Shown here: positions 27,794-40,772 of the stretch, piece after piece | Numbering within the stretch: the stretch's first letter is position 1 | How the letters are laid out: every line of letters begins with the position of its first letter | Origin: Escherichia virus TH15 | Strand: one strand, 5' to 3' | DNA: 64,000 nucleotides | Sequence record: MT446392.1 | The notes under the pieces: generated by a model | Database searches by the model: none | The model's input: only the letters and a program-made list of their open reading frames with translations | What the model was told of the DNA's origin: nothing | Position numbers and translations under genes: made by a program

Positions 27794-27986
27794 TATTCTT
27801 AAAAATGCTCACTGTGAAAAGTGTAAATGGCCAGTTGTTTTTGCTTTATGCAACGATGAAATGATATGTGATTTTGATTATTGGTGCTATTGTTCTAATA
27901 AAGGGTGTGTGAATCATGCAGGCGCCGGTTTCTATTCCGGGTTTCAACCGTATCCAGACTTTGTAAAACAAGGTGAACCGAAATGA
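27780..27986 (+). CDS. Cys-rich small protein (putative zinc-binding)
   Basis: 68 aa with CxxC ... CxxxxxxC ... CxC ... C pattern. Confidence 0.45.
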   Translation: MSQTSILKNAHCEKCKWPVVFALCNDEMICDFDYWCYCSNKGCVNHAGAGFYSGFQPYPDFVKQGEPK

Positions 27987-28168
27987 GTTTAAGTATTAGT
28001 CAGAAAAGTAGATTGTTTGAGCTTATCCATGAGCTTTTGGACGAGCATACGGAAGCGAACGCTTTTTATGATGAATACGGCCCGATAGATGCCGAACATC
28101 AGGAAGAATTTGCTAATCGGTTTGATGAGAAAGAAAACGAATTAATTGCTTATGTGAATACTCTTTAA
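27983..28168 (+). CDS. hypothetical acidic small protein
   Basis: 61-aa ORF, translationally coupled. Confidence 0.4.
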   Translation: MSLSISQKSRLFELIHELLDEHTEANAFYDEYGPIDAEHQEEFANRFDEKENELIAYVNTL

Positions 28169-28177
28169 GAAGGTGAT

Positions 28178-28750
28178 ATGGCGAGTTTAATTTATCATTA
28201 CGCAGCAATGAATGCAGGCAAAACAGCTTCATTGCTGACTGCAGCTTATTCCTATAAAGAGCGTGGAATGAGTGTGCTTTTGCTAAAACCTGTTATTGAT
28301 AATCGGGACTCGGAATCTGAAATTAAATCACGTATTGGTATTAGCCAGGAAGCAAACCTGGTAACGGCCGACATGAACCTGTTTGAATTCTATAAATGGG
28401 CCGAGTCTCAAAAGGATATCCATTGTGTCCTGGTTGATGAAGCTCAATTTTTGTTACCAGAGCAAATTGACCAGTTAGCACGAGTGGTTGATAATTACAA
28501 TATCCCCGTTATGTGTTACGGGTTAAGAACAGATTTTCGGGGTCAATTATTTCCCGGTTCAGCCAGACTTCTGGCTATTTCGGATAAACTGGTTGAATTA
28601 AAGGGCGTCTGCCATTGCGGCCGGAAAGCAACCATGACCGCTCGAGTAATCGACGGTGCTGCTGTAAAGGACGGCGAGCAAGTGTTAGTCGGTGGGAATG
28701 AATCGTACGTATCTTTATGCAGGAAACATTGGCTCGAATTGACAAGCTGA
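28178..28750 (+). CDS. tk: thymidine kinase
   Basis: 190 aa; P-loop NAGKTASL, VDEAQF and C-terminal CxCG...C zinc motif typical of type II thymidine kinase. Confidence 0.85.
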   Translation: MASLIYHYAAMNAGKTASLLTAAYSYKERGMSVLLLKPVIDNRDSESEIKSRIGISQEANLVTADMNLFEFYKWAESQKDIHCVLVDEAQFLLPEQIDQLARVVDNYNIPVMCYGLRTDFRGQLFPGSARLLAISDKLVELKGVCHCGRKATMTARVIDGAAVKDGEQVLVGGNESYVSLCRKHWLELTS

Positions 28751-28757
28751 GGTCCTT

Positions 28758-29033
28758 ATGATATATAAGATTTGGACGTATATCTCTATTTTTGTTATTG
28801 CTGGAATTGCATTTATCCCCACACAAACAGATAGCGAGAGATATGAAAGGGAAATTGAAATAGTAGCAAGCACGTACCATTCTGTTAATAAAGAATGCCC
28901 GAATAAAAATGGAATAAATTTACAAAAAGCACATTATATGCTGACTGTTACTAGCCCAGTGCAAAGAATATGGGTTGATAGACATTTTTCTGATTTATTT
29001 GCAATATATTGTTTCAAGTTTAAAAGATTATAA
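28758..29033 (+). CDS. small membrane protein
   Basis: 91 aa with N-terminal TM segment. Confidence 0.45.
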   Translation: MIYKIWTYISIFVIAGIAFIPTQTDSERYEREIEIVASTYHSVNKECPNKNGINLQKAHYMLTVTSPVQRIWVDRHFSDLFAIYCFKFKRL

Positions 29034-29107
29034 ATACAGTTACTAACTAGTATTCCGCTATGTTAAGGCTGCAAAGCGTAATCATGACCAACAATAAGGA
29101 GTCCTTT

Positions 29108-29404
29108 ATGGACCTTATTCGAGGACTTTCTCTAAGTCTATTACTAATGGGCTGTTTAGGCCCAAATCTGTCCTCTGCTACAGATGGTAAATTTACCCAG
29201 TATGCAGATAGTGCGATGCAAATCTATTCGCAATTCAAAGAACCCAGCGTCGAGCAGTCCGAACAATTTTGGGCTTTTATTAAAACCGAATGGAACAATA
29301 AGAGTCAATGTGTAAATGAAATCACATGTCAAATTGATGGCCGGGCTGCTGCAGTCGAATACGCTAAATTAATGAAGGTAAAATTGGAAGATGAAATTCG
29401 ATGA
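29108..29404 (+). CDS. putative lipoprotein
   Basis: Start at Met 17 of ORF 29060..29404 (strong SD aaggag); signal peptide with lipobox-like LLMGC. Confidence 0.45.
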   Translation: MDLIRGLSLSLLLMGCLGPNLSSATDGKFTQYADSAMQIYSQFKEPSVEQSEQFWAFIKTEWNNKSQCVNEITCQIDGRAAAVEYAKLMKVKLEDEIR

Positions 29405-29774
29405 TTTCGTAACAGGTCGTGGGTCTGAGGTGGATTCATACATTGGGTGGCTATTAACCTCTTTAGCATATTTTAAGTCCGCCCATCTTGAAACCAAAAG
29501 TTACGCCCGCCATAAAGCTTATGATTTCTACTTCACAGAAATCCAAGGTCCACTCGACCAGTTCAGTGAGCAATGGTTAGGTTACAGCGGGAAACAATAC
29601 AAAGCTGCATTACCGTCCGCCTCGGACTTGCCGAAAGATACAATTTTGTTTTTAGATGAAATGATTAAAAGCTCGGAAAGAGTCTATAAAGTTGTACCCA
29701 AGGCTATTCAATCGACTCTGGACGATATCGTTGGAGTTTTCTTTCAGACTAAGTATCTGTTAACACTAGAGTAA
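29391..29774 (+). CDS. hypothetical protein
   Basis: 127-aa ORF, translationally coupled. Confidence 0.45.
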   Translation: MKFDDFVTGRGSEVDSYIGWLLTSLAYFKSAHLETKSYARHKAYDFYFTEIQGPLDQFSEQWLGYSGKQYKAALPSASDLPKDTILFLDEMIKSSERVYKVVPKAIQSTLDDIVGVFFQTKYLLTLE

Positions 29775-29781
29775 TTCAAAA

Positions 29782-29807
29782 GGTCTGCCTTCGGGTGGAC
29801 CTTTTTT
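29782..29807 (+). terminator. rho-independent terminator (UUCG-loop hairpin)
   Basis: GGTCTGCC-TTCG-GGTGGACC followed by TTTTTT. Confidence 0.55.
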
Positions 29808-29816
29808 CATTTAGGG

Positions 29817-29852
29817 GTTTACATCCTCATAAAAAGGGTGTACTATTATCCC
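29817..29852 (+). promoter_or_regulatory. early promoter cassette: -35 GTTTAC, -10 TACTAT, TATCCC half-site
   Basis: 18-nt spacer; leader ATCAACTACTGAGGAG. Confidence 0.5.
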
Positions 29853-29874
29853 ATCAACTACTGAGGAGAACACA

Positions 29875-30078
29875 ATGAGAATTAAAAATATCAAGATTGA
29901 TGCAGTTAATACTGGTGATGAGGTTGTTATCTATCTTAATGATTATGCAATCTTTATGGACAGTGCCACTGATGAAGAAGTGGTTGAACTCTTACAGAAA
30001 GCTCCATTTGAACTGTGTGAAGAAGATGCTACTCATCTTTCATCAGCAATTTTCTCATTATCATATGTGGTGGAATAA
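29875..30078 (+). CDS. hypothetical small protein
   Basis: 67-aa ORF behind a promoter cassette. Confidence 0.45.
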   Translation: MRIKNIKIDAVNTGDEVVIYLNDYAIFMDSATDEEVVELLQKAPFELCEEDATHLSSAIFSLSYVVE

Positions 30079-30314
30079 TGAAACTTACAAATACCATGGT
30101 TTCATTGGAATATGAAACCAATAATCATATTCTTGAAATTAAGATATTTGATGACAGAAGCATATTTGCTGATTACAGGGGGTACAGAATCCGCTTGGAA
30201 AAGGAACAGCTTAAAGATGTTGAGCTTTTTAAAGAAACATTAAAAAGTTGCGGGTGTAAACTGAAAAATACTCAAGTCCAAGAATTAATTTCTACCATTA
30301 TCAAATACTGGTGA
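30078..30314 (+). CDS. hypothetical small protein
   Basis: 78-aa ORF, translationally coupled. Confidence 0.45.
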   Translation: MKLTNTMVSLEYETNNHILEIKIFDDRSIFADYRGYRIRLEKEQLKDVELFKETLKSCGCKLKNTQVQELISTIIKYW

Positions 30315-30317
30315 TAT

Positions 30318-30500
30318 ATGATTACTTTAGAACAAATTGAAAAAATTATTAAACTCGCTCGCGATATTGAAATTGACTCATATGAACTAGCTGTTGAACA
30401 TTGCGAAGGATATTCATATTCTGGGATAGAGCAGTGCAAACGTGATTTAAATGGTTCTAAAGAAAAATTAGTCGCTTATCTAAACGAGTTGAAAGCATAA
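30318..30500 (+). CDS. hypothetical small protein
   Basis: 60-aa ORF. Confidence 0.4.
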   Translation: MITLEQIEKIIKLARDIEIDSYELAVEHCEGYSYSGIEQCKRDLNGSKEKLVAYLNELKA

Positions 30501-30757
30501 TGGCTGTTGGATTTGCAAAAGATGGTGCTGAACAGTTAGAGATGGAAGCGGTTGTACAAGCCGCTATCACCCATGCGAGAGCACAGGTTTCAGTTGAAAG
30601 GGAGTCTGCTAAATTCTGTTTTGACTGCGATGAAAAAATTCCTGAAGCGCGGAGACAAGCGATTAAAGGTGTGATATATTGTGTTGGTTGCCAATCAATG
30701 CATGATAAAGTTTTTAAACGTGAGCCACGTAACTGTTGGCATAGGAGCATGAGATGA
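30500..30757 (+). CDS. TraR/DksA-family C4 zinc-finger protein
   Basis: 85 aa; CFDCDEKIPEARRQAIKGVIYCVGCQ matches the C4-type zinc finger of the TraR/DksA family. Confidence 0.5.
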   Translation: MAVGFAKDGAEQLEMEAVVQAAITHARAQVSVERESAKFCFDCDEKIPEARRQAIKGVIYCVGCQSMHDKVFKREPRNCWHRSMR

Positions 30758-30848
30758 TTTACTATCTTGAACCTTGGGCTTGGTTAATAATGGCTGTAGG
30801 GCCTGTTTTAATTGGTTTATTCTTTTCATGGTTAGCGAGGAAACTGTA

Positions 30849-31064
30849 ATGTTATACGACCCTAGTGGTAATTCTGAAAATGGTGTGATTGTTCTGGAGC
30901 CTGAGCATCCGACTGGTGATGTATACCGTACCGTTGAAGTGTGTGAATGTAATTTCGTTGAAGGAAATACCGGTGGGATTTCCATTGAGCAAGATGATGA
31001 TGTTATTTACCTGGATGCAAGCCAAGTAGAAGCTCTTTATAGTATTTTAAAACATAACCGTTAA
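30849..31064 (+). CDS. hypothetical small protein
   Basis: Start at Met 26 of ORF 30774..31064 (SD gaggaaa); a 31-aa hydrophobic peptide ORF lies just upstream. Confidence 0.4.
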   Translation: MLYDPSGNSENGVIVLEPEHPTGDVYRTVEVCECNFVEGNTGGISIEQDDDVIYLDASQVEALYSILKHNR

Positions 31065-31076
31065 GAGGAAATTAAA

Positions 31077-31631
31077 ATGATTATTGAAAAATCTGGGTTG
31101 TTTGGTGACCTGACTGCCGATGTAATTGATAATGCAATCGTGCTTAAACAAGAAGATGATACAGTCGTTTTGACCATTCAAGATATTCAGAACCTGTACG
31201 AGTTGTCTGTTATTGATGCAGAGCAGTATATTCGAACTCGTAATCGTGTCTTTAAAATTAACGATGAAGTTGTGGCTTGGTTGTATCGAGGTGAAAATGG
31301 CTTTAATCTGGAAACCGAATGGGCTTGTTTATCCATTAAAAACCGTTCAGAATTTTTAGAGAAAATTTTTAAACTCTTCCAAGAAGAGTGTGTACCTGAG
31401 CTCGAATGGAAAATCCCCGGTTGTGATGCTATTATACATTCAAGCGAAACCTTTGAAGGTGATGAAGAAGGTGATTATAATACTGAATTCAGTGTCTACC
31501 AATATCAAGGTCGCGATATGTTATCTATCATCCAGACCCACGGTGGTGAAGCTGAAGTAGTATTCACTAAAGACGAATTAAAAGTTCTGGTAAAATACCT
31601 GAACACTGTTATCCCAACTATGAACCCTTAA
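31077..31631 (+). CDS. hypothetical protein
   Basis: 184-aa ORF with SD gaggaaa. Confidence 0.5.
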   Translation: MIIEKSGLFGDLTADVIDNAIVLKQEDDTVVLTIQDIQNLYELSVIDAEQYIRTRNRVFKINDEVVAWLYRGENGFNLETEWACLSIKNRSEFLEKIFKLFQEECVPELEWKIPGCDAIIHSSETFEGDEEGDYNTEFSVYQYQGRDMLSIIQTHGGEAEVVFTKDELKVLVKYLNTVIPTMNP

Positions 31632-31641
31632 GGAAAATATT

Positions 31642-32094
31642 ATGATTATCAATACAAACTCTTGGCACGCTAAATTACACGACCGTTTTTATGACCGTCA
31701 TTCTCGACCACACTCTTTGTGTGCTTACTTCTGGAAAATTGTATGGGCCTGTTTTGTTTGTGCAGGTTTTATTGGCAGTACAGTCTTCTGCTTAACTGTT
31801 GCAGGTGCTGGTGTATTGGAGCAGTTCTTTGTATTAAGTATTCCGGTTGGTTTAGGGCTAGGGTTTATTTTAGGACTGGCTACAATGGCTATTATTCTGG
31901 CGGTAGTATTTGGTTTAATGTATGGTCTAATGAATTTATGGTCCTGGTATGATTTACGTAAAGAAGAAAAAGAATGGGAACGAATTAAAGCTGGGCGTGA
32001 AGGCCGAGAAACTAAAGAAAACGTTTTCATTCAATATATCAAAGCTCGTAAATCTAAGATGTGCCCGGTAATCCATTTTGAGGCGAAGAAATGA
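31642..32094 (+). CDS. membrane protein
   Basis: 150 aa; multiple hydrophobic segments. Confidence 0.5.
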   Translation: MIINTNSWHAKLHDRFYDRHSRPHSLCAYFWKIVWACFVCAGFIGSTVFCLTVAGAGVLEQFFVLSIPVGLGLGFILGLATMAIILAVVFGLMYGLMNLWSWYDLRKEEKEWERIKAGREGRETKENVFIQYIKARKSKMCPVIHFEAKK

Positions 32095-33101
32095 GAACAG
32101 TTATGAAGGGCTATTTTGGCTCACATCTTTATGGAACAAGTACTCCGGAATCTGATGTTGATTTTAAAGAAATCTTTGTTCCACACCCACGTGACATTCT
32201 GTTAGGTACGGCTATGAACCATACCAACTTGAACACGAATAATACGGCATCCAAAAACACTAAAGACGATGTTGACCACGAGCTTTATAGTCTGAAATAT
32301 TTCTTTAAACTGGCGGCTGAAGGCGAAACTGTTGCTCTGGACATGATTCACACTCCGGCTAACCTGGTAGTCAAATCCGATTTACCAGATGTATGGAAGT
32401 TTATCCAAGACAACCGTTCACGGTTCTATACGACCAACATGAAAGCATATTTGGGGTACGTCCGTAAGCAAGCTTCAAAATATGGTGTTAAAGGTTCTAG
32501 ACTGGCTGCTTTACGTGGTGTACTGGCAATTGTTAACCAGATTCCTGAACAGTGGGTTGACTACCAAGAAGATGGTTCGACTAAACAACGTCGCACTAAA
32601 GTTGAAGATATTAAGCATCGTCTCCCAGAGAACGAATTCTGTGAATGGGTATTCCATAACCATGAGAAAACTGGCCCTCAAACGTTTTATACTGTTCTCG
32701 GTCGCAAATACCAAACTACTTTGTCATTAATCGAGCTTAAGCAATCTCTGAATAAACTTGATGCTGAATATGGTGAACGTGCTCGTAAGGCTGAAGCTAA
32801 CGAAGGTATTGACTGGAAAGCTCTGAGCCACGCTTATCGTGCTGGATATCAGTTGAAGGAAATTTATATGACCGGTGACCTTCAATATCCTTTACGAACA
32901 GCCCCATTTATCCTTGAAATCAAACAAGGGCTACATGCTTTTAAAGATGTACAGGCTGAACTTGAAGCTATCGTTGATGAAGTCGAAACTAATGCCATCT
33001 GGGCTGCTAAGAACGGTATGCCCGATAAGGTAGACATGAAGTTCTGGGACAAGTTTGTTGAAGAGGTATATCTTGACAACCACAATTCCTATTATTGTTA
33101 A
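32091..33101 (+). CDS. nucleotidyltransferase (Pol-beta superfamily) domain protein
   Basis: 336 aa; N-terminal GSHLYGTSTPESDVDF is a clear G[GS]-x(9-13)-D-x-D NTase signature. Confidence 0.5.
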   Translation: MRTVMKGYFGSHLYGTSTPESDVDFKEIFVPHPRDILLGTAMNHTNLNTNNTASKNTKDDVDHELYSLKYFFKLAAEGETVALDMIHTPANLVVKSDLPDVWKFIQDNRSRFYTTNMKAYLGYVRKQASKYGVKGSRLAALRGVLAIVNQIPEQWVDYQEDGSTKQRRTKVEDIKHRLPENEFCEWVFHNHEKTGPQTFYTVLGRKYQTTLSLIELKQSLNKLDAEYGERARKAEANEGIDWKALSHAYRAGYQLKEIYMTGDLQYPLRTAPFILEIKQGLHAFKDVQAELEAIVDEVETNAIWAAKNGMPDKVDMKFWDKFVEEVYLDNHNSYYC

Positions 33102-33107
33102 ATTCTA

Positions 33108-33134
33108 AGGACCCTTCGGGGTCCTTTTTTATTT
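33108..33134 (+). terminator. rho-independent terminator (UUCG-loop hairpin)
   Basis: AGGACCC-TTCG-GGGTCCT followed by TTTTTT. Confidence 0.7.
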
Positions 33135-33143
33135 TAAAAAGTA

Positions 33144-33173
33144 GTGTACAACAAGATGGTCATGAGGCATAAT
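33144..33173 (+). promoter_or_regulatory. early promoter cassette: -35 GTGTAC, -10 CATAAT, ACTGAGTTACC leader
   Basis: 18-nt spacer; leader GATTCCATACTGAGTTACCAAATAAAAACGGGAG. Confidence 0.55.
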
Positions 33174-33213
33174 GATTCCATACTGAGTTACCAAATAAAA
33201 ACGGGAGAATAAA

Positions 33214-33420
33214 ATGTTAGAATTAATCAAAGCTGCTGGTGAAAAAGGTCTGATGGTTAACACTCGTGACCCTGAACAACGTCAAGCATTTGGTGAGTTA
33301 AAAGCCAAAGGTCTGGTTAAAGCATCCCTTGGTATTGGTAATGCTTTGCGTGTGACTTTGACCCCTGCAGGTAAAGCAATGTTCTTCCCTAAACCATTAC
33401 CAAAACGTCGTCGCAAGTGA
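33214..33420 (+). CDS. hypothetical basic small protein
   Basis: 68-aa ORF behind a promoter cassette. Confidence 0.45.
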   Translation: MLELIKAAGEKGLMVNTRDPEQRQAFGELKAKGLVKASLGIGNALRVTLTPAGKAMFFPKPLPKRRRK

Positions 33421-33426
33421 GGAATT

Positions 33427-33729
33427 ATGAAAAAGTATGAAATTGACATGATTGATGCATGTCTTAAATCTGCTGACCATTTTAAGTTGAAAATGCACAA
33501 GTTAAGAGGAATGGTCAAAACTCCAGAAGAGAAGAAACGTTATGCTCTGAAGGAGAAATGTAAAGCTCTTATCATGATGGATAAGATGCAAATGGTCGCC
33601 GCAGAAGCCCACAGGACAAGAAAAGCAGAGGCCCTTGGTGTTTATATGGCTGAACAGATTCATCGCGCACAGCAAGCCGTTAAGAGCGCCTGGTTCAGTG
33701 GCAGTGATGGTGAAAGAACTTTTAATTAA
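33427..33729 (+). CDS. hypothetical protein
   Basis: 100-aa ORF with SD. Confidence 0.45.
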   Translation: MKKYEIDMIDACLKSADHFKLKMHKLRGMVKTPEEKKRYALKEKCKALIMMDKMQMVAAEAHRTRKAEALGVYMAEQIHRAQQAVKSAWFSGSDGERTFN

Positions 33730-33731
33730 AT

Positions 33732-33761
33732 GTGTACACCAGTATGGGAGCGTGACATAAT
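33732..33761 (+). promoter_or_regulatory. early promoter cassette: -35 GTGTAC, -10 CATAAT, ACTGAGTTACC leader
   Basis: 18-nt spacer; same leader class as 33144. Confidence 0.55.
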
Positions 33762-33799
33762 GTTCCTATACTGAGTTACCAAACAAACGGGAGAATAAA

Positions 33800-34324
33800 A
33801 TGGAAGCCAAATCAATCTTTAATCTGATTAATTACAATAATGGTAATTTTAAATCAGAAGCACAAAGCAAGTTCTTTAATGATGTTGCTTGTGCAGGTGA
33901 GATTACAGTATCAGGCGGTCAAACTTATAAAAACGCCTGGAACTGGATTGTAAATGTTGATTCAGTTGGTATTGTTGATGTGTATAAAAACACCAACAAA
34001 AACCGCTCTTTGTTCTGGTCAAGAGAGACTAATGCTGAGTATCAGGCAACAAGAGCAAAGAAAAATATGCCTACTGAATCTGATGTACAGAACATCAAAT
34101 CAGATATCCAATATTATGATGGTCTGATTGCTGAACAACAAGCAGTGCTTGATAAGTTCAATGAAATCAAAGCATGTAAAGAGATTCCTGAATTCATGAG
34201 GGAATCAGTTAATGAACAATACAATCTCACTTCAGAGCGTATTGAAACCTATACCAAACAAAGAGCAGAGCGCCAGGTACTCCTTCAGAAGTTTGAAGAG
34301 CGTTTAAAGACGGTTCTCGCATAA
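33800..34324 (+). CDS. hypothetical protein
   Basis: 174-aa ORF with SD gggagaa. Confidence 0.5.
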   Translation: MEAKSIFNLINYNNGNFKSEAQSKFFNDVACAGEITVSGGQTYKNAWNWIVNVDSVGIVDVYKNTNKNRSLFWSRETNAEYQATRAKKNMPTESDVQNIKSDIQYYDGLIAEQQAVLDKFNEIKACKEIPEFMRESVNEQYNLTSERIETYTKQRAERQVLLQKFEERLKTVLA

Positions 34325-34387
34325 ACGCTTTATACCAAGGATGGTATAATGGTTCTGACCTTTGATTAATCTATTGAGGAAAATAAT

Positions 34388-34801
34388 ATGTCACAAGCAA
34401 TTAATGAAATTCGTTCTGAAGTTAAAAAAGCAGTTAAATTTAACAGTATTCCGAGCACTAAAGATGTGGTTTTAAATGTTTTATATATGATGTGGAATAA
34501 GTTCAATGTTTGTACTAATTCTGCTGAATTCACTAAAATCTTTAATAAAACAACGGGCTTGCTTACATTAGAAGACCGAGTCATGAAATCTCTTCATCGT
34601 TCAGGTATGTTGTCTCGTGCTAATGCCAAAATTTTACTTAAAAATTATAATAAAGGTTATGACCTTTATGGTCGTGCGATTAGCACCATGACATTTGATG
34701 AAGTGGTCAAAGACCTTCATACTAACCAACGCCGTTTATTGGCATTAGGTGCTCGTTTAGCAAGCGGTCAAGATAAACAAATGACCTTTAAAAACCAATA
34801 A
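34388..34801 (+). CDS. hypothetical protein
   Basis: 137-aa ORF with SD gaggaaa. Confidence 0.5.
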   Translation: MSQAINEIRSEVKKAVKFNSIPSTKDVVLNVLYMMWNKFNVCTNSAEFTKIFNKTTGLLTLEDRVMKSLHRSGMLSRANAKILLKNYNKGYDLYGRAISTMTFDEVVKDLHTNQRRLLALGARLASGQDKQMTFKNQ

Positions 34802-34910
34802 TTCTTTAGATTATAAACTATTTAATGTTATTAAAGGTCAAAATGAAGGCGAATACAGTATTTCTTCTTTTAGTGGATGTCAATACGAAAACTGGAAATT
34901 CCATCTTCGT

Positions 34911-35237
34911 TTGGCTTTGTCTGAACTCGAACATCATGGGGTTCTTACCTTCTATGATGTTAAAACTGGAGGCGTCCAGCGTATTAAACTATGTCAAATT
35001 AAAGACCGAGTTGTAGTTGATAGTCCTTCAGAACAAGCTCCTAAAATGGAACCTGTTCCAGTGCGAAGCAATGAAAAATATTCAGAGCAAATTGAGCTTT
35101 TCACTAAACAGATTGAAGAGCTTAACATCACCATCCAGCAGCAAGATGATGAAATTTTCCGTCTGTCAGGACTGAATAATGCAGCGAAAGCCGAACGTCA
35201 GAAACTGATGAACGTTATTAAATTGCTTAAGGATTAA
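34911..35237 (+). CDS. hypothetical coiled-coil protein (start uncertain, possible frameshift)
   Basis: Track ORF begins at TTG 34911; the frame is open from about 34785 without an ATG, while an overlapping frame carries ATGs at 34825 and 34843. Confidence 0.3.
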   Translation: MALSELEHHGVLTFYDVKTGGVQRIKLCQIKDRVVVDSPSEQAPKMEPVPVRSNEKYSEQIELFTKQIEELNITIQQQDDEIFRLSGLNNAAKAERQKLMNVIKLLKD

Positions 35238-35321
35238 TTATGGAATGGCTTGCTGTTCTTGGTTATGTATTCGTTGCCACAGGTATTCTGTGGCTGATAT
35301 TCTCAAATATTGTAGGTTAAT

Positions 35322-35537
35322 ATGGAAATTGTAGGTTTTATTCTCCTTTACTTTATGTTAGGATTCATGACGACCATTATCATTCATAAATCGGGTGATT
35401 GGAATCCAATCGAAATTGAATCAAGTTATGATGCAGTATTCATTACACTAGTATGGCCTCTGCTTTGGTTTGCTTTGGCAATTATGATGGTGTTTTGGCC
35501 TATTGCTAAATTCTATGAAAAATTATTTGGACTATGA
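35322..35537 (+). CDS. small membrane protein
   Basis: 71 aa, two hydrophobic segments. Confidence 0.5.
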   Translation: MEIVGFILLYFMLGFMTTIIIHKSGDWNPIEIESSYDAVFITLVWPLLWFALAIMMVFWPIAKFYEKLFGL

Positions 35538-35538
35538 T

Positions 35539-36438
35539 ATGAAAATTAAAACTCGCGCTGAATATGCTAGTAGTTATGAACCACATGACGGTCGTGTGAC
35601 TCGTCTTATCGCAATGAATTCTTTGGTTAACTTTGGCAAAATCAAATCAGGTTCTGCTACCCAGGGGTATGGTCAACGTATTGTAAGAATTAACTCTCTG
35701 AATGATTACTGCCGCCGCCCAGCGTTTTTGTTTGGTGCCACGGTTCGTAAGAGTATCAAGGAAATTCTGGCCGGCGGATTTCGTATTCGCAAAGCTCCGG
35801 TTAACATCAAGAACTATAATTTTAACTCTGACAACTTGATTATCAATATCAAGAATGATGGTGTACAGATTAAGTTCAAACCAACTACCAAGGGCGATGT
35901 TGCTCTTTGTCATAACTTTAAAGAGGTTATGGGTATTGCGCTGTTTTATATGCGCCATGCTGTTGAATCGTACACGTTTGATGAAGATACAAATTATATC
36001 CACCAAACGGAAAAATTCCTCAAAACTATAGTCATTGATATTAAATTAACTAAAGAATATCTTTTGTCTTATGCTCCTTATCAAGAGAAAAATGAACCAG
36101 AAGAGGAAAAGGAACCAGAAATGGAACGTATCCCTACCGCATCATATGGCCCAGCATTTGCAGGTCAGTTTAAATCTTACGACCAGACTAAAATTTCACC
36201 ACTGGAAGTTAAAAATATGTATCAATGGAAAATCCAGCCAAACAGCTCTCTTGAAATCTTTAACCCACCAATGAAGCCTATTGAGAGCTATCATGCTGAT
36301 GCTATCCGGGAATCAGTTAACCGCTTAAATGGTCTGATTGAAGATGAGAAAAAGGGTATCCAGGATGTTCTGAATCGCATCAAGAATATGGAAAAACAAC
36401 GCAATAAATTGCAAGCGGCAATCAAAGCATTAAAATAA
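35539..36438 (+). CDS. hypothetical protein
   Basis: Start at Met 13 of ORF 35503..36438, directly after the upstream stop. Confidence 0.5.
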   Translation: MKIKTRAEYASSYEPHDGRVTRLIAMNSLVNFGKIKSGSATQGYGQRIVRINSLNDYCRRPAFLFGATVRKSIKEILAGGFRIRKAPVNIKNYNFNSDNLIINIKNDGVQIKFKPTTKGDVALCHNFKEVMGIALFYMRHAVESYTFDEDTNYIHQTEKFLKTIVIDIKLTKEYLLSYAPYQEKNEPEEEKEPEMERIPTASYGPAFAGQFKSYDQTKISPLEVKNMYQWKIQPNSSLEIFNPPMKPIESYHADAIRESVNRLNGLIEDEKKGIQDVLNRIKNMEKQRNKLQAAIKALK

Positions 36439-36496
36439 TGTTTACTTCCAAGGATGGAGGGAGTATAATGAATTCCTACTTTATGAGGAGAACACT

Positions 36497-37489
36497 ATGA
36501 CACGTAATGAATATATCCAGGCCTTTAACTCAACTATCGACACAAAAGTAAAACCATTAATAGGTGAATCGGCTATCCTTTTAATTATCAATTTCTGGTT
36601 AAATCAGATTGACTCGACAATTGTTGCATCTGGACGCTTCAAGAAAGACATTGCAACTATTGCGAGTCGTGCTGGTAACGATGATATCAAGAAAACTTTT
36701 AAAAGTTCCCGAGTCCTGGCATACCTGGTTAATAAAGACCTTCTTAACAAGTTTGGTGTTGAATCCAGACGTGGTAAAGGTACAATTGGATATCATTGGT
36801 TTGGCGATGTTGAAAAATACTATCTTGATAAACAAGGCTATACTGCTTCTGAATTCGCAAATTGTTGGGCTCGTGAATTCAGAGATAACAAAATGTCTAT
36901 CATCAAATCAGCGACAAAATTGATGGGTGGTGATTTTCGCACTATCTCCCATTTGGCTGAGCACATGATAAATGTTAAAGATTCTGGTGAAAACCAGGTA
37001 ATTATTGCAGTTAAGTATGAATTCTTTACGCCAGTGGCTACTCCAGAAAATGTCAAAAAGTACCTTGATGTTGCCTGTACGCTTACTCATCAGCTGCAGT
37101 GTGCACTTAATTATATGCGCACTGTTGAAAAAATTAAAGTAGACCCTATCACCAGTGCTCATGGTTGGAAAGGTTGGAAAATTGTGGTGACATTACGCGA
37201 AGTTAAATGTGCAAAGCAACCAACTGTTGCAGAAATCTATAAAAAGAAAAGTGAGGAAATTATGAATGCTCCGCATGAAGTTACTACCCTTGAAGACCTG
37301 ATTGATAACCTGAATAATGAGCCAGTGAAACAAAAAGCGCCTGAAATTGTTGCCCTGGAAACAGCGTATAATGAAGCTCTTGCTGTTAATAAAAAGGCAA
37401 CTGAAGACTATACAAAAGCCAAGCGACTTTGGGAAGAATCAACCAATCGTCTGGATAAACTGGAACAGGCTCTGGAGCTGTTGAAATGA
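36497..37489 (+). CDS. hypothetical protein
   Basis: 330-aa ORF with SD gaggag. Confidence 0.5.
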   Translation: MTRNEYIQAFNSTIDTKVKPLIGESAILLIINFWLNQIDSTIVASGRFKKDIATIASRAGNDDIKKTFKSSRVLAYLVNKDLLNKFGVESRRGKGTIGYHWFGDVEKYYLDKQGYTASEFANCWAREFRDNKMSIIKSATKLMGGDFRTISHLAEHMINVKDSGENQVIIAVKYEFFTPVATPENVKKYLDVACTLTHQLQCALNYMRTVEKIKVDPITSAHGWKGWKIVVTLREVKCAKQPTVAEIYKKKSEEIMNAPHEVTTLEDLIDNLNNEPVKQKAPEIVALETAYNEALAVNKKATEDYTKAKRLWEESTNRLDKLEQALELLK

Positions 37490-37803
37490 AAAATCGTTTA
37501 AGAGAAGATATTGCTGCAGCCTCTAATACAGATTTATTGAAATTTATTAAAGAAGCCGAGCTCGATGAAATTAAATTGAATGGAAAAATTCATGGCTGTG
37601 ATGATTATAGCCGAGATATTCCTGATTGGAATGCTATTATTAAAATTGTCGAACGTCGTGAAAAAGCTTCTAAGAACGTTCCTAACTGTCCTATGTGTGG
37701 AACTGAACAAGTCCAGTTGATTCAATGGCGACATAATCCGCTTCAGTATAAATGTCGCATGTGTAAACACAAATTTGAGAGAGATGAAAATGGCAAAGCG
37801 TAA
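37486..37803 (+). CDS. zinc-ribbon protein
   Basis: 105 aa; CPMCG ... CRMC pair near the C-terminus. Confidence 0.45.
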
Positions 37804-38035
37804 AGAATATGTTGAGACCGCCGAAAGGGTGGTCCGTGAATTAACTCTGGCCTATTATAAAGAACACGGCAAATTTCCGGATAGTTATTCGGTATTGAAA
37901 TCCGCTTTAACCCGTTCGTATAATAATATCCTTACTGAAGTGCATGATATCAGAAATGCACACCTTAAAGAAACTGGAACAGAGCTTGACCGCTCTGAAG
38001 TATTCAAACAAGTATTAGGAATTCAAGATGTTTAA
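37790..38035 (+). CDS. hypothetical protein
   Basis: Start at Met 6 of ORF 37775..38035. Confidence 0.4.
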
Positions 38036-38291
38036 AGTATATGGCTATGATTCAAACATTCATCGTTGTGTTTTCTGCGACAATGCAAAACGTCTACTTG
38101 ACGTTAAAAAACAGCCTTACGAATTCATCAACGTGATGCCTGAAAAAGGTGTGTTTGATGATGAGAAGATTGCTCAACTCCTGGCTGCACTTGGTCGCGA
38201 ATCCCAAATTGGTTTGACTATGCCACAAGTGTTTGCTCCTGACGGAAGTCATATTGGTGGCTTCGACCAACTGCGAGAATATTTCAAATGA
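38028..38291 (+). CDS. nrdC: thioredoxin / glutaredoxin NrdC
   Basis: 87 aa; [24 protein letters not shown]...[25 protein letters not shown] closely parallels T4 NrdC including the CxxC site. Confidence 0.9.
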
Positions 38292-38477
38292 TTGAATTAA
38301 TGTTGGGTGTTTTGTATCTTATCATTGGTATTGGTTATGCTAAGACCCTAGCTAAATTAGATGATTTCGGTGCAGGTGATTTTTGTTGGTGGCTGACGTC
38401 TATGATTTGTTGGCCTTTATTTCTGGTTGGTGCTTCATTCTGGAACTTTAAATGATTGACGAATTTATGGTGGAATT

Positions 38478-38786
38478 ATGATTGGATTAAATGAACAGAC
38501 TATTTTTCTAGGTGATGGTACCGAAGATGACCTAGAATATAAACTCTATGAATACATGGTAGCCCTGGCGAAAGAAGAAGGTATTGACTTTGCTGTGGCT
38601 AATCCATATGGCGAGAACACCGTTGTAATCGGTGGCACTGCTTATGAAGTCCAATGGCAATACGTTGGGCTTGAATCTGAAGAATATGAAGAAGATAAGC
38701 ATGGCGATTGGCATCCGGTTGGTCCTTGGTATTGGGACGACGGCGAGCCTGATTTTGAAGTAAGTAGTTATTGGTGTGACCGTTAA
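38478..38786 (+). CDS. hypothetical acidic protein
   Basis: 102-aa ORF. Confidence 0.45.
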   Translation: MIGLNEQTIFLGDGTEDDLEYKLYEYMVALAKEEGIDFAVANPYGENTVVIGGTAYEVQWQYVGLESEEYEEDKHGDWHPVGPWYWDDGEPDFEVSSYWCDR

Positions 38787-38832
38787 GCCATGGTATACCG
38801 CTCGATGGGAAACTGTCGAGCCAGAGGAACCG

Positions 38833-38862
38833 GTTTACAACGGTTTCGAAACAGAGTATAAT
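38833..38862 (+). promoter_or_regulatory. early promoter cassette: -35 GTTTAC, -10 TATAAT, palindromic spacer GGTTTCGAAAC
   Basis: 18-nt spacer. Confidence 0.5.
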
Positions 38863-38902
38863 GAACCTTCAAACAATGATTTAATCGATATGGAGTTTGG
38901 AT

Positions 38903-39076
38903 ATGAGTACCAAAATTGAAGTTGGCCGTCACAAAGGCCGTTTAATTGAACATTCTCTTTACGAGTTGTCGGATTCTCGTAAGTTACCTGATGAAGAATC
39001 TGCTTTAATTTTTGCCGCGGCAGATTATATTCATTGGCTTGAAGCCCAACTTCGCTTTTCTGATGAGGTCTTTTAA
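38903..39076 (+). CDS. hypothetical small protein (57 aa, below the ORF-track cutoff)
   Basis: Hand-translated MSTKIEVGRHKGRLIEHSLYEL...; stop overlaps next ATG (TAATG). Confidence 0.35.
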   Translation: MSTKIEVGRHKGRLIEHSLYELSDSRKLPDEESALIFAAADYIHWLEAQLRFSDEVF

Positions 39077-39345
39077 TGTTTTTAGAAATTGTTAATATTC
39101 ATGCTGCTCAATCAGGTTTTATGAAAGAGCTTCAAGACGCGGGATTTAAAAATGGTGATGTTATCCAGGCGTTAAGACAACGTTTTGACCCTGATGTTGA
39201 ATGTAATGTTTGGGACGTTGTTGAAGCAGATGAATACCTTTTTGATACCATAGAAATTGAAGGGTCATGGACCTGTATCACTGAGTATATGATAATTGAT
39301 AATGGTAACGTTGAATGCCATTATCCTTGTTTTAGGATTGTTTAA
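39076..39345 (+). CDS. hypothetical small protein
   Basis: 89-aa ORF, translationally coupled. Confidence 0.45.
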   Translation: MFLEIVNIHAAQSGFMKELQDAGFKNGDVIQALRQRFDPDVECNVWDVVEADEYLFDTIEIEGSWTCITEYMIIDNGNVECHYPCFRIV

Positions 39346-39521
39346 TGAAAACTAAATTAGTCTATACTGAAAAATTAAATGGTGCCAAGGTCTGGAAACT
39401 TCTTATCAAAGGAAGTCCTACCGACCAGTTTATGGCCACCTGTGTGGGATTGTATACTCGTCCTACCAAAAAGATGATTCGTCAATTTAAACGGTTGCAT
39501 CGCTCTTTCTATAATATTTAA
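39345..39521 (+). CDS. hypothetical basic small protein (58 aa, below the ORF-track cutoff)
   Basis: Hand-translated MKTKLVYTEKLNGAKVWKLL...; TAATG coupling to the upstream ORF. Confidence 0.35.
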   Translation: MKTKLVYTEKLNGAKVWKLLIKGSPTDQFMATCVGLYTRPTKKMIRQFKRLHRSFYNI

Positions 39522-39557
39522 TAAATACCCTTATCTAATAATGGTAGGGGTTAAATT

Positions 39558-40634
39558 ATGCAAGATTATGGCCATTGGTCTGTATTTGAAGAAGTTGACA
39601 TTAAAAATTATATTGGGTTTGTGTACGTGATTACATTTGAAGACGGTCGCAAATATGTTGGTGCTAAAAAGATTTGGAAACGAATCAAAGCAGCTCCATG
39701 CACATTCAAGCGCGGTCCCAAAAAAGGTTTTGAAGAATCTGATTGGAAAACCTACACATCCTCATCAAATGAGTTAAACTCAATTCTGGAAAATGGTATA
39801 AAGCCAAAAGAAATGATTATCATGGGTTGGTATCCAACTTGGGGTAAAACACTTATGGCTGAAATGGAAATGCAACTAGCTAATGATGTTTTGCGAGACC
39901 CAATGTGGCTCAACAAACAGATTGGTGGTCATTTCAACCCCAACTGTTTTGATGATTTGACTCAAGATGATATTGCTCGATGGATTGAATTTGACAAAGG
40001 CAATGAACATGTTAATTGGCCTGTGATGTATAAAATGGGTCAGAAAACTAAATATGTTAAACCTGACGAAGTTGAAAATTATTTGGCGAAGGGTTGGCAG
40101 TTTGGGCGTTCTCGTTCAGAAAAGCATGGAATAATTACCAATTGTTCTTCGTATAAAATTTGGGATTACCAGACTGATACGGAAGTTGAAGTCGTTAACC
40201 AAACCGAGTTCGCGCAAGAAAATGAAATCTCTGCAAGTCATTTAACCAGACTGTTACAGGGTGATTTAGACCTAATTCAGGAACGTTGGGGCTTACCTCC
40301 GACCATTGCACGACAAAGATACAAATTTGCTTTGGCTGATGATAGTGTAAAATTTATATCGAACGCTGATGTTGAACAATATTTTGGTGTTGGTCGCGGT
40401 GGTTGTGCAAAAATATTAAAAGATGGAAAAATTAAAAAGTTGGTCGTGGAAGACAAAAAATCGCATAAAGCAAAACTTGCAACCATGGATTTAGTCAAAA
40501 CAGTTCGACATGAAAAAGTTTCACAAATGGAATTAAACTTTTTCAAAGATATGGTTAATCCGCTATCTCAAACTGAAAGAGATAACTTAACAGTATGGCT
40601 CGAAAGCTATATACAGTATTTAAAAAACAACTGA
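39558..40634 (+). CDS. possible GIY-YIG-type (Seg-like) endonuclease
   Basis: 358 aa; N-terminal YIGFVYVITFEDGRKYVGAKK resembles the GIY-(10 aa)-YIG module; remainder unassigned. Confidence 0.35.
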   Translation: MQDYGHWSVFEEVDIKNYIGFVYVITFEDGRKYVGAKKIWKRIKAAPCTFKRGPKKGFEESDWKTYTSSSNELNSILENGIKPKEMIIMGWYPTWGKTLMAEMEMQLANDVLRDPMWLNKQIGGHFNPNCFDDLTQDDIARWIEFDKGNEHVNWPVMYKMGQKTKYVKPDEVENYLAKGWQFGRSRSEKHGIITNCSSYKIWDYQTDTEVEVVNQTEFAQENEISASHLTRLLQGDLDLIQERWGLPPTIARQRYKFALADDSVKFISNADVEQYFGVGRGGCAKILKDGKIKKLVVEDKKSHKAKLATMDLVKTVRHEKVSQMELNFFKDMVNPLSQTERDNLTVWLESYIQYLKNN

Positions 40635-40772
40635 GGAAATCGCTCAAATGATTAATTTTTATGGCTACATATTTTATGCTTTAGCTGAATCTATGAATGA
40701 TATTATCCGCCGCATGGGTGACGAGTATCCTTCTCAATGGCTATTCCTCGTAACCAATACAGGACCTTTCTA

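Follow-up and report, generated by a model that had tools for sequence, protein, structure and literature searches.

The small gene at 30500..30757 (+) in the DNA of Escherichia virus TH15 raises the question of whether this phage makes a factor of the TraR/DksA family, to which branch of the family such a factor belongs, and whether it acts on the host RNA polymerase. We have addressed this by a computational analysis of a stretch of 64,000 nucleotides from sequence record MT446392.1, here called the window. The gene is an ORF of 85 aa, as the initial annotation had claimed; it lies on the + strand and runs from ATG to TGA, and its translation is MAVGFAKDGAEQLEMEAVVQAAITHARAQVSVERESAKFCFDCDEKIPEARRQAIKGVIYCVGCQSMHDKVFKREPRNCWHRSMR. 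An antisense ORF of 97 aa (30457-30750) was considered and rejected as a gene, because the pattern of substitutions follows the + frame.

The surrounding 4 kb are 93-96% identical to the Escherichia phages VR26, VR25, and VR7 (Straboviridae, Tevenvirinae, Gaprivervirus), and the stretch derives from a Gaprivervirus-like relative of T4. The counterpart in VR7, VR7ORF106c, is labelled "hypothetical protein" and is 97.6% identical to the TH15 protein. The gene is preceded by tk, rI, MobD.7/rI.-1 (DUF5856), mobD.5, a 78-aa ORF, and mobD.3 (DUF7438), and followed by a 31-aa ORF, a DUF7189 gene, mobD.1, a membrane protein gene, and nrdC.11, such that the order of genes matches tk-rI-rI.-1-mobD.x-nrdC.11 in T4-like phages. 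Its start codon overlaps the stop codon of the upstream gene (TAATG) and its stop codon overlaps the start codon (ATGA) of a hydrophobic ORF of 31 codons (MIYYLEPWAWLIMAVGPVLIGLFFSWLARKL; 30754-30849, +), and the gene is translationally coupled inside an operon. The 31-codon ORF is kept in VR7, VR26, and HX01 and is missing next to the homologues in the Klebsiella phage and the jumbo phages. The G+C content of the zinc-finger gene is 43.4%, compared with 32-34% in the three small genes upstream (29875-30500) and 39.6% in the window. The higher value is compatible with a ybiI-like gene of bacteria as the source, or with a composition rich in Ala, Gly, and Arg.

The transcription unit is bounded upstream by an intrinsic-terminator-like hairpin (29778..29805, +) that follows MobD.7/rI.-1 and is conserved in VR7, VR26, T4, and the Klebsiella phage. 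Downstream of the hairpin, and about 650 nt upstream of the gene, is a candidate T4 early-type sigma-70 promoter, GTTTACA-17-TACTAT (29817..29846, +), the sequence of which we take to be the T4 early-promoter signature. Both hexamers and a GAGGAG RBS are invariant in five phages including T4. The candidate promoter would drive transcription from mobD.5 via the zinc-finger gene to nrdC.11, with an end at the terminator at 33107-33126. Neither a late TATAAATA box nor a MotA box was found between the candidate promoter and the zinc-finger gene. Judged from these signals, early expression of the gene is likely, since the early-type elements are conserved and late and MotA boxes are missing in between. 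The early accessory setting that had been proposed for the gene is thus borne out by the tk-rI-mobD-nrdC.11 collinearity, the conserved upstream terminator, and the early-type promoter. MotA-box-like sites (WWTGCTTYA) number 23 in the window, where shuffled sequences give an expectation of 9.9 +/- 3.4; this excess fits a T4-type middle-promoter system. On the + strand, none of these sites falls within 27848-40675.

Two observations concern the neighbouring genes. The product of MobD.7/rI.-1 (29391-29774, +) carries the RefSeq name "starvation-inducible transcriptional regulator" in T4, VR7, VR26, and others. The name seems unsupported, because DUF5856 is the sole family match, and through this label the gene may be confused with the DksA-like gene. 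MobD.5 (29875-30078) and the DUF7189 protein (30849-31064) have the segment "...D(D/E)VVIYL(N/D)..." in common, suggesting distant paralogy among several of the block's small genes.

The family assignment of the product was based on a C4 zinc finger, and the finger holds up well, with profile matches far better than chance would give. It spans residues 40-65 (CFDCDEKIPEARRQAIKGVIYCVGCQ; 30617..30694, +) and has the form CxxC-x17-CxxC (C40, C43, C61, C64) plus Q65. In the alignment, the cysteine spacing equals that of C37/C40/C58/C61 in TraR, and the four cysteines are invariant among 43 aligned relatives. Pfam PF01258 (zf-dskA_traR) is matched at 37 bits (E 3.3e-9), above its gathering cut-off of 24.9, PHROG 54 ("DksA-like zinc-finger protein") is matched at E 2.7e-20, and profile-profile comparison with a TraR-type alignment returns a probability of 99.5%. 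We infer that the phage protein binds zinc. In the long ORFs of the whole 64-kb window there is one other CxxC..CxxC motif, CPMC-x18-CRMC in an ORF of 105 aa (37486-37803, +), apparently a zinc ribbon without relation to the TraR/DksA finger.

The initial annotation called the protein TraR/DksA-type. This stands for the family and falls for the TraR branch, in that the best fit is to the YbiI type, both in the ranking of NCBIfam models and in the match to the solved structure 2KGO. The YbiI equivalog NF008243 is the top-scoring model with 77.2 bits and aligns with residues 1-73, followed by the TraR subfamily TIGR02419 (53.7), the TraR equivalog NF010268 (31.8), and DksA NF033459 (14 bits); all four scores are below the respective cut-offs of 96, 59.7, 108, and 105. 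Among solved relatives ranked by sequence, E. coli YbiI (2KGO) comes first (E 2.7e-9, aligned from residue 1) and the TraR-RNA polymerase complexes 5W1S/6N57 come second (E about 2e-5). The AlphaFold model (pLDDT 71) consists of a helix at residues 6-28, the finger, a helix at 62-71, and a short helix at 80-83. A fold search with this model ranked 2KGO first, then 6N57_M (TM 0.55 over 64 columns), 5W1S, and finally DksA, with 7KHI and 5VSW as distant matches. As modelled, the three-part fold resembles that of TraR; the predicted helix at 62-71 occupies the position of TraR_C and is followed by 14 more residues.

The same division is seen on inspection of 204 relatives from two large database searches, in which three types could be told apart (the TraR reference sequence was from an F-like plasmid). 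Members of the phage clade start with MAVGFAKDGAEQ and end in FKRxPRNCWHRSMR. Members of the bacterial YbiI clade start with MAxG[FW]AKDGAVQ and end in [YF]NRRGSKDSQLR. Proteins of the TraR type, including authentic TraR and lambda Orf73, are about 70 aa long, start with M..DxxDxA, and are without a tail. The phage and YbiI clades match each other in hhalign at 99.9% probability, and P0063, which ends in ...NRKVWHRSMR, is an intermediate that joins them. On these sequence criteria we place the phage protein in the YbiI type and not in the TraR type; it is not a DksA. The neighbourhood of one bacterial YbiI-type gene (P0054) was also examined and was uninformative.

In a pairwise codon comparison of five copies (TH15, VR7, VR26, the Klebsiella phage, and a 378-kb Asteriusvirus), the N-terminal 12 codons have 48 synonymous and 0 non-synonymous differences and the C-terminal 14 codons have 24 and 4, compared with 60 and 95 in the helix (residues 13-39) and 78 and 52 in the zinc finger (residues 40-65). 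The gene is real and under purifying selection at the protein level, and the strongest constraint is on both termini rather than on the finger.

At the N-terminus, the invariant motif MAVGFAKDGAEQ (residues 1-12; 30500..30535, +) was characterized from sequence lists, hhalign, and spacing. Like the bacterial start MAGGFAKDGAVQ, it conforms to the YbiI signature MAxG[FW]AxDGAxQ. In hhalign, D8-G9-A10 pairs with D6-E7-A8 of the DxxDxA tip of TraR. The DxxDxA motif is incomplete, only xxxDxA being present (F5-A-K-D8-G-A10), and the first Asp is missing in 40 of the 40 phage-clade clusters. D8 lies 31-33 residues ahead of the first Cys, a distance for which the second Asp of the TraR type has its mode at 30-32, and it is preceded by 7 residues as against 4-6 in the TraR type. 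Other T4-like YbiI-type proteins start with GWGPSDDGF and not with DGA, and the DxA match is therefore not branch-wide. Within the finger, PEARR (P48, E49, A50, R51, R52; 30641..30655, +) corresponds to P45-E46-A47-R48-R49 of TraR. Among the 43 aligned relatives, P48, R51, and R52 do not vary and E49 hardly varies; the position of TraR P43 is taken by K46 and is variable across the clade.

At the C-terminus, the invariant tail FKREPRNCWHRSMR (residues 72-85; 30713..30754, +; AF2 pLDDT about 51-65) has no counterpart in TraR-type proteins. By sequence comparison, the phage tail PRNCWHRSMR is a derived form of the bacterial YbiI tail [YF]NRRGSKDSQLR, to which it is homologous through intermediates such as P0063 and from which it has clearly diverged. 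We considered whether conservation of the tail is an effect of the overlapping RBS and start codon of the downstream gene and rejected this explanation, because in the jumbo phage, where a gap of 60 bp precedes the next gene, the tail is equally conserved and kept with synonymous changes. The proteins of KP15, Acj61, fGh-Ecl01, KPV15, and X20 (88 aa) have the bacterial YbiI tail as their C-terminal 12 residues (YNRRGSKDSQLR), although identity elsewhere is about 45%. Bacteria and phages thus have in common a short C-terminal motif under very strong conservation. A metagenomic homologue of 145 aa (P0030) runs 60 residues beyond the usual ...WHRSMR end, an extension that is due to stop-codon loss or an assembly artefact.

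One explanation for this pattern is that the protein has a role unrelated to RNA polymerase, in which the conserved termini bind another partner or a metal and the TraR/DksA fold is a mere scaffold. The features that define YbiI, the G-[FW]-x-x-x-D start and the long tail, are exactly those that TraR is without, and the phage tail has gained Cys79, Trp80, and His81 as possible ligands for a metal or a partner. There is precedent in the TraR homologue of VP882, which acts through a partner protein; some members of the C4-finger family are unlike DksA in their action, and the authors of the work on TraR hold that the C4 finger alone is no predictor of DksA/TraR-like function. However, the residues by which TraR grips RNA polymerase are invariant or nearly so in a finger that otherwise varies. 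In addition, no partner gene conserved beside the homologues was found when Gaprivervirus, Klebsiella-phage, Yersinia-phage, and jumbo-phage contexts were compared, and neither the zinc-finger protein nor its two coupled neighbours matched any PADLOC defence model. Taken together, we consider a role away from the polymerase unlikely.

The gene is widespread. Database searching yielded at least 40 clusters of the phage type, with identities as low as 59%, and by tblastn 778 phage records contain relatives; intact copies span T4-like genera and jumbo phages. In Jiaodavirus, Winklervirus, and Karamvirus, YbiI-type genes are found downstream of rI/DUF5856; in Acinetobacter phage Acj61, the gene adjoins nrdC.11, and in Slopekvirus KP15 and Yersinia phage phiR1-RT it is near the primase and dCTPase genes. 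In the Asteriusvirus jumbo phages, the gene is located in the direct terminal repeat amid small early-type genes.

Several lineages have lost or damaged copies. In T4 itself, the gene is missing and the tiny and unrelated mobD.2a and mobD.2 are found at its position; the idea that these are relics of a zinc-finger gene was rejected for want of any resemblance. RB69-like Mosigvirus have a chimera that retains the last ~28 residues, corresponding to PHROG 25948, the second PHROG match. These chimeras are 54-64 aa long (P0048, P0051, P0056; in Escherichia phage HX01 at 2459-2623 of L004) and consist of a DUF7189-like N-terminus and the C-terminus of the zinc-finger protein, with "...DDD(M)VVIY|CVGCQ" as the junction and with loss of the first CxxC. 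The junction suggests a deletion by way of a short VIY microhomology. At the site of the HX01 chimera, RefSeq has just an ORF of 23 aa in another frame. In phiR1-RT (2501-2753 of L009), there is a frameshift near codon 31 and an R52L substitution in the PEARR loop, and this copy is either decaying or affected by a sequencing error. It is found near the primase, dCTPase, and modA genes, not near rI; in the sister phage fHe-Yen9-01, the copy is intact, with 84 aa (P0025).

The gene is evidently dispensable, given that T4 lacks it, RB69-like phages have the chimera, and phiR1-RT carries a frameshifted copy, and we regard it as an old, mobile, and non-essential accessory gene. The same absence, C-terminal fragment, and frameshift with R52L could be taken to mean that it is a functionless passenger or a decaying remnant in a hyperplastic region of the genome. 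This is contradicted by the strong purifying selection on the intact gene, by the number and divergence of its clusters across T4-like genera and jumbo phages, and by its translational coupling within an operon, and we find it very improbable. We take the gene to be an accessory fitness factor.

As an annotation, the gene is already known, because the protein has been deposited and labelled and the domain was listed in Aeromonas phage 44RR (Nolan et al., 2006), and it has earlier been discussed in T4-like phages. The exact TH15 protein is in public collections, where its cluster at 95% identity goes under two names, "Zinc finger DksA/TraR C4-type domain-containing protein" and "TraR family C-4 type zinc finger protein". 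In the searchable literature, we found no functional test of a YbiI-type protein beyond a remark on YbiI (PMC2613031) and no discussion of the distinctive YbiI-type termini.

The action of TraR-type factors provides a framework for considering function. In TraR, the N-terminal helix with DxxDxA reaches the active site of the polymerase (PMC9239242, PMC6970531), and S2 is placed 4.3 A from the catalytic Mg2+ (PMC6970531). The C4 globular domain is one of four defining features; P43 and P45 are involved in binding, R48 contacts the rim helices, E46, R49, and K50 contact beta'Si3, and the C-terminal helix sits on the beta lobe and Si1 (PMC9239242, PMC6970531). TraR makes use of betaSi1 and beta'Si3, insertions found in proteobacterial RNA polymerase (PMC9239242). 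Both TraR and lambda Orf73 lower the activity of rRNA and ribosomal-protein promoters. The DxxDxA tip is needed for the activity of both; Orf73 D3N is strongly impaired (PMC9239242). Gp34 of X. bovienii naturally lacks D3, yet binds RNA polymerase equally to TraR and complements a dksA deletion; its IC50 for inhibition of rrnB P1 is 415 nM versus 50 nM for TraR, about 8-fold weaker (PMC9239242). Overproduced YbiI rescues the auxotrophy of a dksA mutant, according to a remark given as "data not shown" (PMC2613031).

The function suggested in the initial annotation, secondary-channel binding with a redirection of host transcription, is carried over from TraR, lambda Orf73, and DksA, and the phage protein is on another branch of the family. 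[quoted passage not shown] We put it no more strongly than this, because the first Asp is missing, the N-terminus is longer, an extra tail is present, and the TraR and YbiI model scores are below cut-off. Our preferred reading, to which we give roughly even odds, is that the protein is an early zinc protein that binds the secondary channel by the PEARR loop and the N-terminal helix and alters initiation independently of ppGpp. A small zinc-binding protein would be made early in infection, its N-terminal helix would enter the secondary channel of the polymerase of the host, and the beta' rim helices and beta'Si3 would serve as anchoring points for the PEARR loop. The kinetics of initiation would then be altered without ppGpp, as with TraR and lambda Orf73. 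Promoters for rRNA and ribosomal proteins would be lowered in the TraR/Orf73 manner, and polymerase and resources would be freed for phage genes. This direction of the effect on transcription is one that we infer.

The preferred reading is supported by the retention of P48, E49, R51, and R52 and by the placement of D8 and A10 in the TraR register. An incomplete tip may suffice, because Gp34 is active without D3 and overproduced YbiI rescues dksA, and TraR-like action is plausible in the host, because it is a proteobacterium with betaSi1 and beta'Si3. An activity that is weaker than that of TraR or qualitatively modified is to be expected, since the first Asp is missing and the tip is 2-3 residues longer. 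Doubt comes from the missing first Asp and P43, the impairment of Orf73 D3N, and the extra invariant tail, for which the TraR mechanism has no equivalent. It also comes from the fact that T4-like phages shut off the host by other means and that the gene is absent or decayed in some lineages.

The combination of kept anchoring residues (P48, E49, R51, R52) and an incomplete catalytic-site motif also brings to mind a blocker or competitor. Such a protein, having a defective acidic tip, would occupy the channel and exclude DksA/ppGpp and GreA/GreB, leaving transcription in the infected cell insensitive to the host stringent response rather than imitating that response. The tip aspartates of DksA are required for function and not for binding (PMC9239242), and Rnk is a precedent for a secondary-channel binder that acts purely as a competitor. 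However, no part of the protein is conserved more strongly than its first 12 residues, in which non-synonymous differences number 0; this would not be expected of a passive plug. In addition, YbiI reportedly complements the loss of dksA rather than phenocopying it (PMC2613031). We hold a protein that acts mainly as a blocker to be unlikely.

One further possibility, which we put forward tentatively and with a low expectation, combines channel binding with the unusual termini. The YbiI-type proteins of bacteria, T4-like phages, and jumbo phages may constitute a functionally distinct class of secondary-channel proteins, in which the aromatic N-terminus plugs the active site or the NTP site and the tail recruits a partner or a second site on the polymerase, for a step in take-over by lytic phages unlike that of TraR and Orf73. 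Their effect would then go beyond a tuning of the kinetics of the open complex. Plugging is suggested because the Gly-flanked aromatic N-terminus extends 2-3 residues past the TraR tip, which is itself so close to the Mg2+.

If RNA polymerase is the target, a secondary-channel effector would be added to the T4-type toolkit for transcription take-over. To our knowledge, none of Alt/ModA/ModB, Alc, AsiA/MotA, and gp55/gp33 uses the secondary channel. The orphan E. coli YbiI would likewise gain a function by analogy, and the distinct and extremely conserved termini lead to simple testable predictions. As it stands, the gene is a correctly recognized member of a known and annotated family and is dispensable in several lineages.

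Among known proteins, E. coli YbiI is similar to the phage protein in its MAxG[FW]A.D.A.Q start, its finger, its PEARR loop, its length of 88 aa, and its long and conserved C-terminal tail. It differs in the sequence of the tail (NRRGSKDSQLR versus RNCWHRSMR in the phage protein) and in an Arg at the position of the phage His25. The host ybiI gene is sigma-S-dependent and adjoins iron-uptake genes, whereas the phage protein is probably expressed early. The TraR of F has in common with the phage protein the C4 spacing, the P45/E46/R48/R49 residues, the register of D6 and A8, and the architecture of N-terminal helix, globular domain, and C-terminal helix. In contrast, D3 and P43 have no counterpart in the phage protein, the N-terminus of which is 2-3 residues longer, and 21 residues follow the last Cys, compared with 8-15 in the TraR type. 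DksA shares the Pfam finger domain; however, it has 151 aa, a coiled coil, and ppGpp-binding residues, whereas the 85 aa of the phage protein include a single N-terminal helix.

KP15_23, Acj61p130, KPV15 gp134, X20, fGh-Ecl01, and 44RR ORF130c belong to the same family and are annotated as DksA-like zinc-finger proteins. For several of them, the gene occupies the same locus on the downstream side of rI and DUF5856. Their identity is about 40-47%, and they have a GWGPSDDGF-type start and the exact bacterial tail YNRRGSKDSQLR. The phage-encoded homologues that have been tested, lambda Orf73, P2 Orf82, VP882 Orf61, VHML Orf8, and X. bovienii Gp34, are likewise small members of the family; they are encoded in early operons amid small ORFs, bind RNA polymerase, and inhibit rRNA promoters. 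Gp34 is without the first Asp, as is the TH15 protein, and yet is active. These homologues are TraR-type proteins of temperate phages or prophages and are without the YbiI-type start or tail, whereas the phage that encodes the TH15 protein is T4-like, strictly lytic, and equipped with other systems for host shut-off.
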